From IMG/VR virus record IMGVR_UViG_3300029305_004606, positions 1-64,000 of that record: a stretch of DNA of 64,000 nucleotides. One strand, given 5' to 3'. Position numbers and translations under genes: made by a program. The notes beneath the pieces were generated by a model. The model did no database searches. It was given only the letters and a program-made list of their open reading frames with translations, and was not told the origin of the DNA. This document shows positions 15,087-64,000 of the stretch, piece after piece; the first letter of the stretch is position 1; the number at the start of each line of letters is the position of its first letter. Origin of the DNA: a virus (taxonomy: Duplodnaviria; Caudoviricetes).

Positions 15087-15821
15087 CTATTTATTTTTAC
15101 GCTCACATAAGATTTCTCTTCTGATGAGATTATAATCATGATTAAAGATAATTTCATAGTATCTATAAAAAGCCATTGGGTTTTTAACCAGCTCTTTATA
15201 GCTGTAATTGACATAATAAAAATCTGCCAATTCGGAATCAGGGATATCATAGCATTTATCAGTCCAAGTAGTAGTAAGATCTCTTATCTTACTATGATTA
15301 CCAGTATCATAATCACAAACAACACTTTCTAATATCAATAATGGGTTGTTAGAGTTTTTAGGATCATTGTATTCTGCAATGAATCTATTATAAATGTCTT
15401 TATTAAACTCAGCATCTTCATAATGCCACAAGCTTCGTCTTAAATAATCACGGCAATAATCAGCTAAAGAATATGCCGTATGAGTTTTAAAAGACATTCT
15501 ATGAGCAACTACATACATATGCCTACTTTTATCAATAAGATAGATCATAGCAGCAGTTAATTTGGTTAATTGAAATTTTTCTTTTTCTCCATTTGGATTA
15601 GTAATCTGCACACATTCTCTAAAATAATACCAGATATTATGCAAACATTCTAATTTAACTTTATTTCTTGTCAACTCATCAAGATTAGGATCATTTGGAT
15701 CAACGTTAATCAGTGTATGATCATTTAATCTTAGCATGAAGTCATAATTATTAACTCCATTATTTTTGAGTTGCTCGGATACTCTAAGAAAACTTTCATT
15801 AGAAGTTTTAAAATTAACCAT
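15087..15821 (-). CDS. Truncated paralogue of the phiKZ-type terminase large subunit N-terminal region
   Basis: ATG at 15821 after GGAGGTG; TSNESFL...LKNNGVNNYDFML...VDPNDPNL...ECLHNIWYYFRE; degenerate Walker A (AHRMSFKT). Confidence 0.65.
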   Translation of the reverse strand: MVNFKTSNESFLRVSEQLKNNGVNNYDFMLRLNDHTLINVDPNDPNLDELTRNKVKLECLHNIWYYFRECVQITNPNGEKEKFQLTKLTAAMIYLIDKSRHMYVVAHRMSFKTHTAYSLADYCRDYLRRSLWHYEDAEFNKDIYNRFIAEYNDPKNSNNPLLILESVVCDYDTGNHSKIRDLTTTWTDKCYDIPDSELADFYYVNYSYKELVKNPMAFYRYYEIIFNHDYNLIRREILCERKNK

Positions 15822-15884
15822 AGATAACACCTCCTTCTTTGGTTACTTACTAAGATGTATACAAGAGGTTTCTAATAAGAACTA

Positions 15885-18933: not shown

Positions 18934-19592
18934 CTGGTTATGGTAGTGGTACTAAAGTAGCAGCTAAAGCTACTAGTGCTACAAGTGCTAGATATAGTAG
19001 CACTTCTAACTATGCTAAAGCAATACCATCTACTGTAGCTAGTAGAATTACTACATTAGAATCATCATTAGCTAATAAAGTAAGTATTGGAAGTCAACCA
19101 AATTTTCCTGGTGTAACTATTGGATCGTCTGATAGTATGTCATATATTTATACAGAAAATGGTGATATTAATTTTAGATATCAACTAACCGGAAAAGAAA
19201 CAAATTATATATCTATTTCTAATCTTCATGATCAATGTATCAATGGATTTAAATCATATAATACATATTGGGGAAATGTAAATACATCTTTTACAGATGT
19301 AAATAATATTTATATAAATGGTATAGGTAATACTGTTGGAGGACAATATACAAATTTACCTTTAGATACAGATGGTTGGGGTACATTAATTAATTTTGTA
19401 TGTGATGTTACTATAATTCAATATTATTTTGGATGGAATTCTGGACATTTATGGTATAGAATGCATTATAATAATTATGCATGGGTAGATTGGTGTGATA
19501 TAACAAGTATTTCAAATAGACTTGATAATCTTGAAAATAAGTTTAATAATTTATTTTCACAGAGTGGTACCACTCTTAATATTACCTATTAA
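18924..19592 (+). CDS. Silent tail-fibre cassette 9
   Basis: NDLAGYGSGTKVAAK... open into ORF 19137-19592; knob-like WYRMHYNNYAWVDW; ends SGTTLNITY. Confidence 0.8.
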   Translation, partial: NDLAGYGSGTKVAAKATSATSARYSSTSNYAKAIPSTVASRITTLESSLANKVSIGSQPNFPGVTIGSSDSMSYIYTENGDINFRYQLTGKETNYISISNLHDQCINGFKSYNTYWGNVNTSFTDVNNIYINGIGNTVGGQYTNLPLDTDGWGTLINFVCDVTIIQYYFGWNSGHLWYRMHYNNYAWVDWCDITSISNRLDNLENKFNNLFSQSGTTLNITY

Positions 19593-20444: not shown

Positions 20445-20571
20445 AATTGCCACCTCCGATTTATATAATTGTATTATATATCATACTGAACAAATCCTCT
20501 AGGGTTTTATTAACCCTAGAGGATCGTTCAAATATATTTGAGTTCTTATGGAATTCCAAAGTATCATCTTT

Positions 20572-20653
20572 GCTAACGATGACGGGATTTGAACCCGTGA
20601 CCACCGGATGTGCACTTTCCGGTTGCTCTACCGAACTAAGCTACATCAAAAGC
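20572..20653 (-). ncRNA. tRNA-like RNA with non-canonical anticodon arm and mismatched acceptor stem
   Basis: Canonical D arm (GCTT...GAGC) and T arm (ACGGG-TTCAAAT-CCCGT); anticodon arm ACCGGA-AAGTGCACA-TCCGGT. Confidence 0.75.
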
Positions 20654-20656
20654 AAA

Positions 20657-20729
20657 CTCCCCGAGTAGGACTCGAACCTACGACACCCTGATTAACAGTC
20701 AGATGCTCTACCGACTGAGCTATCGAGGA
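20657..20729 (-). tRNA. tRNA-Asn(GTT), CCA not encoded
   Basis: TCCTCGA/TCGGGGA acceptor, TCTGA-CTGTTAA-TCAGG anticodon arm, GTAGG-TTCGAGT-CCTAC T arm, G discriminator. Confidence 0.95.
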
Positions 20730-20842
20730 ATAATCTATACTCTTATGTTGGTTATGAATTGTAAAAATGTTGATTTTCAATTATATATTATAATTATGAT
20801 AGATGTAATCAATATTACTAAAGCTAAAAGGAGGTAAAGTCT

Positions 20843-21391
20843 ATGAAAACACTATCGAACAAGCAGCTTGAGGAAATGGAACCTAAAATTGTCGAAGAGC
20901 TCACCAAAGCTAAAGGCAAGGATGCTGTAAAACAGGTTGCTAATAAGCTTAAGATTGATCAAGATCTGGTTAGACACATTTATAATACCAGAAAAATTGG
21001 TCAAAAGAAAATCAAAGTAGCACCAATTTCATCTATTGTTCAAATTTCTTCTCCAACTAATTTGAATCCAATTGTGAACGTTGCTGAATTATTACCTAAT
21101 CCTGAACTTCAAAGTAAAGTATCTGGGAATTTATCAGAAGATACTAATAACGTTGAAGTAAAGGGAGGAGGTAAAGGTAAACGACTTAGCGATGATATTA
21201 AGATCGCTGTAGCAATGGATCTTGAGACAGGAAAATATACTTATTCTCAGCTTTGTGAAAAGTATCATATTTCATATGCATCTGTAGCAAGAATAAAGAA
21301 AGAAATCATAGGAGGAGGATACGATTTGAGAAAACAACAACATGGAAAAAGAGATCTGGTGGTAAAAGAACAACATCTCCAAAGTCGATGA
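20843..21391 (+). CDS. HTH DNA-binding protein (early)
   Basis: RLSDDIK...YTYSQLCEKYHISYASVARIK; early promoter at 20775-20799. Confidence 0.65.
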   Translation: MKTLSNKQLEEMEPKIVEELTKAKGKDAVKQVANKLKIDQDLVRHIYNTRKIGQKKIKVAPISSIVQISSPTNLNPIVNVAELLPNPELQSKVSGNLSEDTNNVEVKGGGKGKRLSDDIKIAVAMDLETGKYTYSQLCEKYHISYASVARIKKEIIGGGYDLRKQQHGKRDLVVKEQHLQSR

Positions 21392-22185
21392 ACAAATATC
21401 AGGTAAGAAAGTCGATTGAGGAGTTGCAGGCAGAATATGTCAAGAAATCTGAAGAAGAAGTTGCACCTAACAATGAGAAAGAACAAAATATTGCAACTAT
21501 ATCGGATAGTCTTAAGACTGCTTTTAGTACAACATTCAAAATTGAAGAAGTAAAAGAAACAGCTGTTAAAGTTGGTCTTTGTGCTGATCGTCATGAAATG
21601 AATGTGGATAAATTTATATTTGGAACGCTTAACGAAAGTGAGATGTTCAATTATCCTTTATTGTACAATAAAGCAATGGCATTTATAGCAGATAATTGCC
21701 CTGATAAAATTCTTCATTTATATTGCACTGGTATTCAGTGTGCTTTAGCTGCTGTAATTAAAGCTTGTCATGATTCGAAATGCACATTGAGCTTATTTCA
21801 TTACAATGCATCAAATTCTACATATATGCGTCAGGATATGTGGAAGTATACAGATACTTTTGTCGATGAATTAACTGCAGCATATGCTGATATTTTGAGA
21901 AAAGGTCCTGTATATACATTTAACGCTCAGAGAATCAATCAGGAAGAATTTTTCACAATTAGTATCAATGAAATAAATAGAGAATCTGATGGATTTGCTA
22001 ATCAGGTATATGTAATCTGCAGTTCTATAGAGGATGCGTTTAAACTCTATGCTGATTATGTAAAATATAGCACATCAGAGGAAGGCAGCAAACAGAAAAA
22101 AGCTATCTTCTTGACAAGATGTAAAGTTGAAAAAGGAAAGTTCTTGTGGGATGCAAATATCTGCAAGTCTTTCAATTACAAGTAA
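21388..22185 (+). CDS. Hypothetical protein, possible CARF/SAVED-like Rossmannoid domain
   Basis: GLCADRHEM...LHLYCTGIQCALAAVIKAC...LSLFHYN; fold assignment tentative. Confidence 0.45.
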   Translation: MNKYQVRKSIEELQAEYVKKSEEEVAPNNEKEQNIATISDSLKTAFSTTFKIEEVKETAVKVGLCADRHEMNVDKFIFGTLNESEMFNYPLLYNKAMAFIADNCPDKILHLYCTGIQCALAAVIKACHDSKCTLSLFHYNASNSTYMRQDMWKYTDTFVDELTAAYADILRKGPVYTFNAQRINQEEFFTISINEINRESDGFANQVYVICSSIEDAFKLYADYVKYSTSEEGSKQKKAIFLTRCKVEKGKFLWDANICKSFNYK

Positions 22186-62238: not shown

Positions 62239-64000
62239 ATGAACAGTTTTGATTATTCGAAAATTCAAGATATATTGAATCATCTGTTAGCGAGAGATTT
62301 AAATATCATGACATCTGACAATATTAAATTTGTCAATGATTGTGCTATAAATTTATATCAGATTCCTTATATGAAATATACTCCATCTGATATTGATGGA
62401 TTAAAGAGTATATTAAGAATCTGTAATATCTTGTATAATAGGACTGACCTGAGAGTTCTTCCTATAGAAGATGGATTTTATGATTTGCTCTTAGAATTAT
62501 ATAAGAGATTTGATCCTAATTTTCAGGTTGGATCTGATGTTATAGATTTCGAGTCTGGTACAGATTTTACAACCGATATCGTTAAAAAAGAAATAATATG
62601 TCCAATTGAATTTGTGCCACCAAGAAAGAAAAAAGGTGATGATGATCTTAGAGATCATATATATAATGAAATTATTATGAAAGGAAAATCTACTCTGAAT
62701 AAGAGAGATTTTTATACTTCTCCAATTGAATTCGAAGCAGCTTATATTCCTAAGAGACTTCATAATATTGAACACAATCATCCAACTCTTGTTGGTACTT
62801 TAGATAAAGCAAAATTTGTATTAAATCAGGATGCTATAAATGCTGGTGTATTTAATGATCCGAATGTAAGTATACTAGAAAGAGATTTCTTTCAGGATCA
62901 TCTATCAAAAGGTATCTATGATAAAAATAGAGTAATTCATATTGTTTGTGAAATAAAGTATGATGGAATTTCTGTAGAAGGAGATTGTAATTTTACTCTT
63001 CAGTCTGCTAGATCAAGAGGAGATACAGGAATGGGAGCAGCAAGTGATATGACTCCTATATTGAAGGATTATATATTCAAAAATGCTGCTTGTATGATAG
63101 GCGAAGAACCTGTTGGAGTTAAGTTTGAAGCGATTATGACTAAATCTGATTTATATCGTTTCAATATAGCAAGAGGTAAGAATTATGCAAACTGTAGAAC
63201 AGCTATAGTTGGTCTCTTTGGTGCTAGTGATGCATATTTATATAGAGATTATATTACATTGGTTCCTCTTGCTTTGGACTTAGAACAATTTAATGCAACT
63301 CATCCTAATATTGCTATTACAGATAGATTATCTGAAATTGCTTTCATCAACAGTGTATTCACTTCTAATGGTGAACCTTTAAGATATTGTGTATTTAGCG
63401 GAACTGTTGGCGAAGTATTGTATTTGATAAAAATGTTTGTTGATGAGGCTAAGTATGCTAGAGATTTCTTAAACTTCATGTATGATGGAGTTGTAGTTAG
63501 TATTCTTGATGAAGATATTAGAATGACACTTGGTAGAAAGAATTTCATTAACAAATTCTCTATGGCTGTTAAATTTGATCCACTTGAAAAACAAACTACT
63601 TTTAGAGGATATACTTACGAAGTAGGTCAGCATGGAGATATTACACCTATGATTCATTATGATCCAGTAGAATTTAATGGAACTATTCATACAAAATCAA
63701 CTGGATCGTCTTTGAATAGATTCAAAGATCTTGGTCTTAGACCTGGAGAAATTATCAATGTAACTTATGTAAACGATGTAATGCCTTATGTAAGTAAATT
63801 GGATTGTGTACAAAACAGAGAAAACACCAATCCACCAATTCCATTCATTTCAGAGTGCCCTGTATGTGGTTCCAAACTTATGGAATCTACTTCTGGTAAA
63901 TCTGCATATTGTCCTAATCATGAATGTCCTGCAAGAACAGTGCAGAGAATGACAAATATGTTTGCTAAAATGAATATTAAGGGATTTGCTGCAGCTTCAT
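62239..64000 (+). CDS. ligA: NAD-dependent DNA ligase (3'-truncated by window; missing from ORF track)
   Basis: ATG at 62239 after AGGAGG; GTLDK, EIKYDG (adenylation Lys), SRGD, DGVV, AVKF, OB domain, CPVCGS...CPNHECPA zinc finger. Confidence 0.92.
   Translation, partial: MNSFDYSKIQDILNHLLARDLNIMTSDNIKFVNDCAINLYQIPYMKYTPSDIDGLKSILRICNILYNRTDLRVLPIEDGFYDLLLELYKRFDPNFQVGSDVIDFESGTDFTTDIVKKEIICPIEFVPPRKKKGDDDLRDHIYNEIIMKGKSTLNKRDFYTSPIEFEAAYIPKRLHNIEHNHPTLVGTLDKAKFVLNQDAINAGVFNDPNVSILERDFFQDHLSKGIYDKNRVIHIVCEIKYDGISVEGDCNFTLQSARSRGDTGMGAASDMTPILKDYIFKNAACMIGEEPVGVKFEAIMTKSDLYRFNIARGKNYANCRTAIVGLFGASDAYLYRDYITLVPLALDLEQFNATHPNIAITDRLSEIAFINSVFTSNGEPLRYCVFSGTVGEVLYLIKMFVDEAKYARDFLNFMYDGVVVSILDEDIRMTLGRKNFINKFSMAVKFDPLEKQTTFRGYTYEVGQHGDITPMIHYDPVEFNGTIHTKSTGSSLNRFKDLGLRPGEIINVTYVNDVMPYVSKLDCVQNRENTNPPIPFISECPVCGSKLMESTSGKSAYCPNHECPARTVQRMTNMFAKMNIKGFAAAS

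Follow-up and report, generated by a model that had tools for sequence, protein, structure and literature searches.

A tRNA look-alike encoded directly downstream of tRNA-Asn, on the minus strand of an uncultured 200-kb phage, is on balance best explained as a maintained (selected), non-decoding tRNA-shaped RNA that would be made as the second cistron of a small operon. Its structure, its conservation and its position in a tRNA slot are direct observations; its expression, its processing sites and its partner are predictions.

The window analysed covers the first 64 kb of a virus record 200,990 bp long. The G+C content of the record is about 31%, and its inverted terminal repeats match exactly over 127 bp. 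Among deposited phages it has no close kin, the best protein match being 21% identity to Staphylococcus jumbo phages. Across the 200,990-bp genome the Rfam tRNA model (RF00005) matched only twice. One match, tRNA-Asn(GUU) (anticodon GTT in the DNA) at 20657–20729 on the minus strand, scored 68.8 bits and was also called by ARAGORN; its CCA is not encoded. The other is the look-alike, at 20574–20650 on the minus strand, which scored 40.9 bits against a gathering cut-off of 29 and was not called by ARAGORN. This tRNA-like body, positions 1–73 in the Rfam numbering, scored 116.8 bits on a covariance model of our own (R1). An initial annotation of this DNA, whose minus-strand sequence for 20572–20653 reads exactly as quoted, had named an Infernal search as a check, and the match proved to lie above the cut-off.

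The spacer between the tRNA-Asn discriminator and the look-alike is UUU, the distance of 3 nt given in that annotation. The leader UUUGCU (20651–20656, minus strand) separates the look-alike from tRNA-Asn and also supplies the 5′ strand of an outer helix, by pairing with the trailer AGCAAA (20569–20574, minus strand), which includes A73 and was read from the sequence as the 3′ strand. Upstream of the two RNA genes, a consensus scan found a promoter-like site, ATTACA-18-TATAAT (20780–20809, minus strand; 10 of 12 positions matching), which is a pattern match only in a phage that probably has its own RNA polymerases. Downstream, a terminator-like hairpin (20489–20522, minus strand) with an 11-bp stem, CCUCUAGGGUU/AACCCUAGAGG, followed by AUUUGUU, was read from the sequence and folded; it was not flagged by the consensus scan, and relatives retain its stem with a variable loop. 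Since a promoter-like site precedes the two RNAs and a hairpin with a U-tract follows them, the promoter, tRNA-Asn, 3-nt spacer, look-alike and terminator look like one small operon.

The tRNA shape of the second RNA cannot be put down to chance. Its D and T arms can be read from the sequence, as can the tertiary core (U8, A14, G15:C48, G18G19 and the T-loop UUCAAAU), and in the Rfam alignment both of these arms are normal and the variable loop has 4 nt, bearing out the earlier statement that both arms are intact. The look-alike shares with decoding tRNAs the cloverleaf, the D and T arms, the core nucleotides and a score above the Rfam cut-off. At the place of the anticodon loop the alignment has 11 nt where the model has 7, and acceptor pairs 1–2 are flagged as non-standard. 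In place of the 5-bp anticodon stem, 7-nt loop, U33 and purine 37 of a decoding tRNA there is a lengthened arm (20603–20623, minus strand), recognised both in the sequence and in the Rfam alignment, with a perfect 6-bp stem (ACCGGA/UCCGGU) and the 9-nt loop AAGUGCACA (20609–20617, minus strand). The palindrome GTGCAC lies at 20610–20615 within the loop; stem, loop and palindrome are as first described. At 21 nt against the canonical 17 nt the arm is 4 nt too long, and it is without U33.

The acceptor end also departs from the 7-bp stem, free discriminator and 3′ end for CCA of a decoding tRNA. It begins with U1.U72, U2.U71 and U3.G70, followed by four Watson–Crick pairs, and positions 73–78 are paired with the leader, giving 13 stacked helix positions that start directly after the tRNA-Asn discriminator. 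The two U-U mismatches reported for this stem are thus present, but its reported length of 10 positions falls short of the 13 that include the leader-trailer pairs. Since these pairs seal the helix, no free NCCA end is obvious. When the R1 model was aligned to the tRNA-Pro of a close relative (L002), the outer pairs GCU/AGC fell on acceptor pairs 1–3 of the tRNA-Pro, with UUU/GUU as an insertion. From this one alignment we infer that the helix may be a perfect 7-bp acceptor stem (GCUGAUG/CAUCAGC, then A) broken by a 3 × 3 U-rich patch. Both arms of the tRNA L would then be stretched, the anticodon arm by 4 nt and the acceptor helix by the 3 × 3 insertion, again on the strength of that single alignment. 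The lack of U33, the oversized arm and the defective acceptor end support the original proposal of a tRNA-shaped gene that should not decode.

The neighbouring 448-aa protein has 335 homologues in metagenomes, and contigs from relatives were fetched via this protein and via an 80-aa gene downstream of the RNAs; single-protein locus searches with two neighbouring genes found no relatives in IMG/VR. The look-alike is carried by at least ten independent JGI/ENA/Logan assemblies as five sequence variants within one narrow clade. The 301-nt RNA region of the window recurs without a change in five JGI assemblies and with a single-base difference, upstream of the RNAs, in a sixth. The ENA/JGI contigs L001, L049/L050 and L051 have the look-alike with few changes, and L212 has a diverged form whose 3′ end was confirmed by a Logan contig (L213). 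Because the same loop recurs in so many independent assemblies, the extra loop bases are not an assembly error, and the alternative raised at the outset, a misassembled but normal tRNA-Ala or tRNA-Cys, is ruled out.

In the next-closest lineage (L002/L003), whose 448-aa protein is 93% identical, the place of the look-alike after tRNA-Asn is taken by a canonical tRNA-Pro(UGG). More distant kin carry tRNA-Gln with tRNA-Asn, tRNA-Tyr with tRNA-Asn, or tRNA-Gln alone. Since kin have tRNA-Pro, tRNA-Gln or tRNA-Tyr beside tRNA-Asn, the slot is, judged by gene order, a tRNA slot, and the look-alike appears to occupy a place where tRNA genes turn over.

Several other features were seen among the relatives. 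In one contig (L048:1294–1376, JGI 3300018495) an 80-nt deletion joins the D arm of tRNA-Asn to the look-alike at a shared 10-mer, CGGTAGAGCA, destroying both RNAs, and ARAGORN finds no tRNA there; this is either a natural variant or a chimera, and its source assembly has a similar sample number. Logan contigs of several related phages (L005, L007 and L010) end within or just upstream of tRNA-Asn, so that the RNA slot is systematically missing from them and the census of look-alikes is biased. A tubulin-family protein (PF00091) is encoded in relatives of this phage group (L004:19158–20264), and a tyrosine integrase in another relative lineage (L207:12705–13772).

Sequence constraint was measured as the divergence of each lineage from the window, with the look-alike taken from leader to trailer. 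In L001, L049 and L051, neighbouring coding DNA differs by 17–25% and the intergenic flanks by 11–19%, against 1.4–2.7% for tRNA-Asn and 3.4%, 2.3% and 0%, respectively, for the look-alike. The corresponding values for L212 are 24–25% for coding DNA, 14% and 31% for the two flanks, 1.4% for tRNA-Asn and 14.4% for the look-alike. For L001, L049 and L051 a Fisher test of the look-alike against the intergenic flanks gave 6e-10, and the anticodon arm with the variable loop alone, at 2 changes in 75 sites, gave P = 0.002; both values are approximate, as the lineages share history and are not independent. No lineage has a change in any of the 12 bases of leader and trailer (P about 2e-4). Some of the low divergence of the look-alike could stem from lineages having recently exchanged the RNA cassette. 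The initial view that simple decay is less likely is borne out, the look-alike matching tRNA-Asn approximately in its degree of conservation, next to flanks that differ by 11–31%.

The substitutions themselves respect the fold. In the L001, L049 and L051 lineages A27 changes to G, turning an A-U pair into G.U, and in L049/L050 the first loop base changes from A to U, giving the loop UAGUGCACA. Standard pairing survives all substitutions in the D, anticodon and T stems, and pair 49:65 is A-U, G.U or G-C in different lineages, a stepwise compensatory series. The expectation that related phages would show covariation was met in that one series but not statistically: the shuffle control was not significant (237 of 500 shuffles), with only four to five distinct variants from one narrow clade.

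The most diverged lineage, L212, separates two regions of the molecule. Ten of its 13 changed columns fall within the 25 nt of the anticodon arm and variable loop, 7 of these 10 being GC to AT, and the rate of change there is at or above that of the flanks. The anticodon stem is kept solely by three G.U pairs, and the loop reads UAAUAAACA, so that the GUGCAC palindrome is lost. The acceptor/T half changed in 3 of 65 columns, against 23% in the L212 flanks (P = 3e-4); one change there, G70 to U, makes three consecutive U.U. The comparison thus shows two layers of constraint: one, on the acceptor/T half and the sealing helix, holds everywhere; the other, on the anticodon arm, holds in the majority of lineages, though not in every one. 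Since the anticodon arm of L212 drifts at or above the flank rate, that half is dispensable in at least one lineage.

The first layer is what would be expected if the RNA were an ex-tRNA kept solely as RNase P/RNase Z punctuation and 3′ protection, releasing and maturing the dicistronic tRNA-Asn. Conservation across all five lineages extends to the acceptor/T half, the leader and the trailer, whereas the anticodon arm is free to drift, as in L212; the outer helix starts directly after the tRNA-Asn discriminator; and kin have a real tRNA in the same place. By a textbook rule, RNase P cuts at a distance of 12 helix positions from the T loop, which is where the U-rich unpaired patch is found. This explanation leaves the conservation of the anticodon arm in L001, L049 and L051 unaccounted for. 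In addition, two relatives (L210 and L211) have tRNA-Gln with no second tRNA within 10 kb, and in two others (L014 and L207) tRNA-Asn is the last of a tRNA pair, so that a downstream handle is not generally required. As the sole function, a processing handle is therefore considered rather unlikely.

The second layer raises the possibility that the selected function is homodimerisation, in which tRNA-shaped molecules would join tip to tip through the self-complementary GUGCAC loop. Kissing dimers formed by the dimerisation-initiation (DIS) loops are established for HIV-1. The DIS-type hairpin has a 9-nt loop with six self-complementary, purine-flanked nucleotides on a stable stem, and the look-alike has AAGUGCACA on its 6-bp stem. 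The likeness to the HIV-1 loop pointed out in the initial annotation is borne out: AAGUGCACA is letter for letter the apical loop of DIS type F, which sits on a 6–7-bp stem (PMC10483063). In the L049/L050 variant a U-A closure would give the 7-nt loop AGUGCAC, the natural DIS-K loop (PMC10483063). The loop-loop duplex is predicted at −10.9 kcal/mol, and GUGCAC is unchanged in the window, L001, L049/L050 and L051, where the arm as a whole is constrained. No homology with HIV-1 DIS is implied; the hairpin of the look-alike is the anticodon arm of a tRNA body.

Several observations weigh against dimerisation as the selected function. Conservation of the loop in relatives, which the first annotation had made a touchstone of this proposal, fails in one of the five lineages, L212 having UAAUAAACA in place of the palindrome with the remainder conserved. 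Taken alone, the lack of change in the six bases falls short of significance (P about 0.06), and by our own estimate (four windows × 1/64) a random 9-nt loop has about a 6% chance of holding a 6-nt palindrome. GTGCAC occurs 5 times in the 200,990-bp genome against about 6 expected, without bias; given this unremarkable count and the chance estimate, the palindrome alone is weak evidence. A second look-alike in a more distant relative (G009, below) is without a 6-nt palindrome. A kissing loop is possible, judging from the loop sequence, yet it would not belong to the conserved core, and homodimerisation as the selected function is judged unlikely.

A maintained, non-decoding tRNA mimic accommodates both layers. 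The tRNA body, comprising the D arm, T arm, elbow contacts and inner acceptor pairs, would have been kept and both functional tips rebuilt, the acceptor end by a U-rich 3 × 3 non-pairing patch, beyond which six more leader-trailer pairs seal the helix. To host proteins that process or bind tRNAs, such a molecule would look like a tRNA; it would be neither charged nor bound by the ribosome, and its role would be that of a stable tRNA mimic. For the acceptor/T half, the simplest function would be maturation of the operon transcript, since the conserved half abuts the 3′ end of tRNA-Asn; it would most simply be an RNase P/RNase Z handle that also frees that end. That most lineages also constrain the anticodon arm suggests a second contact, with either an anticodon-arm-reading protein or another copy of the RNA. 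Through it the RNA may act as a decoy or sponge that binds a host factor directed at tRNAs, or may pair with itself via GUGCAC.

Some host defences cut tRNAs and are countered by phage tRNA genes (PMC10264068, PMC11555353), and by analogy a decoy role for the look-alike is plausible. Evolution of the anticodon arm together with a host factor would account for its stability in four lineages and its replacement in the remaining one. A search of the phage for tRNA-conflict genes (RtcB, RNA ligase, CCA-adding enzyme, TGT and Thg1) found none, a point against the mimic reading. The fullest version of this proposal, a stretched mimic with both tips capped and HIV-DIS-like self-pairing that acts as a decoy soaking up a host tRNA-targeting nuclease or tRNA sensor, is decidedly speculative.

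Decay of the gene was also considered, whereby a former tRNA recently disabled by small insertions would now be without function. Sister lineages with a normal tRNA-Pro in the slot, the AT-ward drift of the L212 anticodon arm and the deletion variant that lost both RNAs are all in keeping with such a course, but the look-alike differs by 0–3.4% where flanks differ by 11–31%, stems stay paired with one stepwise compensatory pair, and even L212 conserves the acceptor/T half. A dying gene is therefore very improbable.

Least probable of all, and set aside here, is an odd but working tRNA, either a stretched alanine-like tRNA or a four- or five-base decoder that suppresses frameshifts: the loop bases UGCAC, with A73, match what we take to be positions 34–38 of the E. 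coli tRNA-Ala(UGC) loop, and engineered tRNAs with expanded anticodon loops can decode longer codons, but the RNA is without U33, its arm exceeds the canonical length by 4 nt, U.U stands at 1:72 and at 2:71 and U.G, not G.U, at 3:70, and the nominal anticodon varies from UGC to UAA in L212. A frameshift-suppressing or expanded-anticodon tRNA is further rejected because the other four genomic GTGCAC sites show no frame switch.

The gene beside the RNA operon is split in the window into two plus-strand frames, 20843–21391 (182 aa, with an HTH) and 21388–22185 (265 aa), which overlap at ATGA; L001, L049 and other relatives have a single frame of 445–480 aa. As the split was seen in at least six independent JGI assemblies, it is real and not a sequencing error. 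The two frames of 182 and 265 aa, where relatives have one of about 450 aa, might suggest a need for a frameshift-suppressing tRNA, but a link to the loop was rejected: the split falls in a variable linker with the ATGA overlap and contains no GUGCAC, and L001 combines the look-alike with an unsplit gene.

A similar element was found in G009, a 243-kb relative with 45% marker-protein identity. It is 95 nt long, lies at L027:1501–1595 (IMGVR_UViG_3300035520_000350, about 63366–63460, minus strand), about 800 nt from a tRNA-Tyr, and scored 43.2 bits on the Rfam tRNA model while being missed by ARAGORN. Its anticodon stem has the sequence ACCGG/CCGGU, as in the window, with a 28-nt insert replacing the loop, and its acceptor helix is sealed by leader and trailer over 11 pairs. 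The design recurs in G009, whose element is a possible homologue; on the R1 model it scored 38 bits, below tRNA-Pro.

As to ancestry, the syntenic tRNA-Pro scored best among canonical tRNAs on the R1 model, but only marginally, at 44 bits, where an unrelated phage tRNA-Thr reached 41. A BLAST search of phages returned weak matches to tRNA-His and tRNA-Asp, and the body pattern matched Asn, CAU (Met/Ile2), Ile and Lys tRNAs in 185k genomes. Among the tRNAs of two Firmicutes sets, a CAU tRNA matched best, in genomes that had been picked via the same body pattern.

Scans for further copies yielded two ordinary tRNAs in the JGI metagenomes and, in IMG/VR pattern scans, only the G009 element and one unrelated chance match (L028). 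The latter was rejected as a copy, having a sub-threshold 21.7 bits and its motif outside any hairpin loop. It is an element of an unrelated high-GC phage (L028:4159–4230, plus strand; IMGVR_UViG_3300035158_000183) that surfaced by chance via the AAGTGCACA pattern; it has a 7-bp acceptor stem, a T arm and an odd middle, and lies just upstream of a cluster of about 12 tRNAs. In the window itself, a weak R1 match at 18948–19027 was dismissed as a second copy, being AT-rich repeat coding DNA without acceptor pairing.

Two other features of the genome were recorded. A 247-aa ORF (15087–15830, minus strand) resembles large terminase families over their N-terminal ~125 residues alone (phrog_32359, 3.7e-28) and is a short terminase-like paralogue or a fragment. 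The 200,990-bp genome also avoids many 6-bp palindromes: TACGTA has 0 copies against 67 expected from base composition, and GCATGC, CTCGAG, GTCGAC, CACGTG and others have 0 against about 14 expected, which suggests pressure from restriction systems.

Plant mitochondrial t-elements, the MALAT1 mascRNA and bacterial YrlA Y RNAs are tRNA-shaped modules that are read, without decoding, by RNase P/Z or by other enzymes acting on tRNA. The t-elements and mascRNA resemble the look-alike in being tRNA-shaped and non-decoding, but belong to other domains of life and serve as analogy only. Membership in the YrlA family (RF02553) was rejected, the match scoring 24.1 bits against a cut-off of 69 and spanning parts of both RNAs. 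With canonical class I tRNA (RF00005), including the tRNA-Pro(UGG) of L002 and L003, the look-alike shares the cloverleaf, the elbow nucleotides, the 4-nt variable loop and the slot; it differs in its two or three acceptor U.U non-pairs and its leader-trailer-sealed helix.

Non-decoding tRNA-shaped RNAs have been recorded in phages since T5, and in T4 too, and to our knowledge they still have no assigned function. The nearest described kind is the stable RNAs of the T5 tRNA cluster, RNA1 together with RNAI and RNAIII. T5 RNA1 is annotated as a "tRNA-like stable RNA with unknown functions" (NC_005859, 30284–30644) next to tRNA-His; like the look-alike, it is phage-encoded, tRNA-related and non-decoding, and lies directly beside tRNA genes. 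RNA1 is produced along with the tRNAs of T5, as the look-alike would be with tRNA-Asn. The look-alike falls with RNA1 in these respects by its position and anatomy, the comparison being one of annotation and position: RNA1 is 144 nt long and comes from an unrelated phage of Gram-negative hosts, whereas the look-alike is a near-complete cloverleaf of 77–88 nt.

RNAs of this sort are missed by standard tRNA finders. The look-alike is small, it sits where close relatives carry ordinary tRNAs, and its constraint falls into two separable layers, so that it offers a clean design for telling a processing handle, a decoy and a dimer apart.
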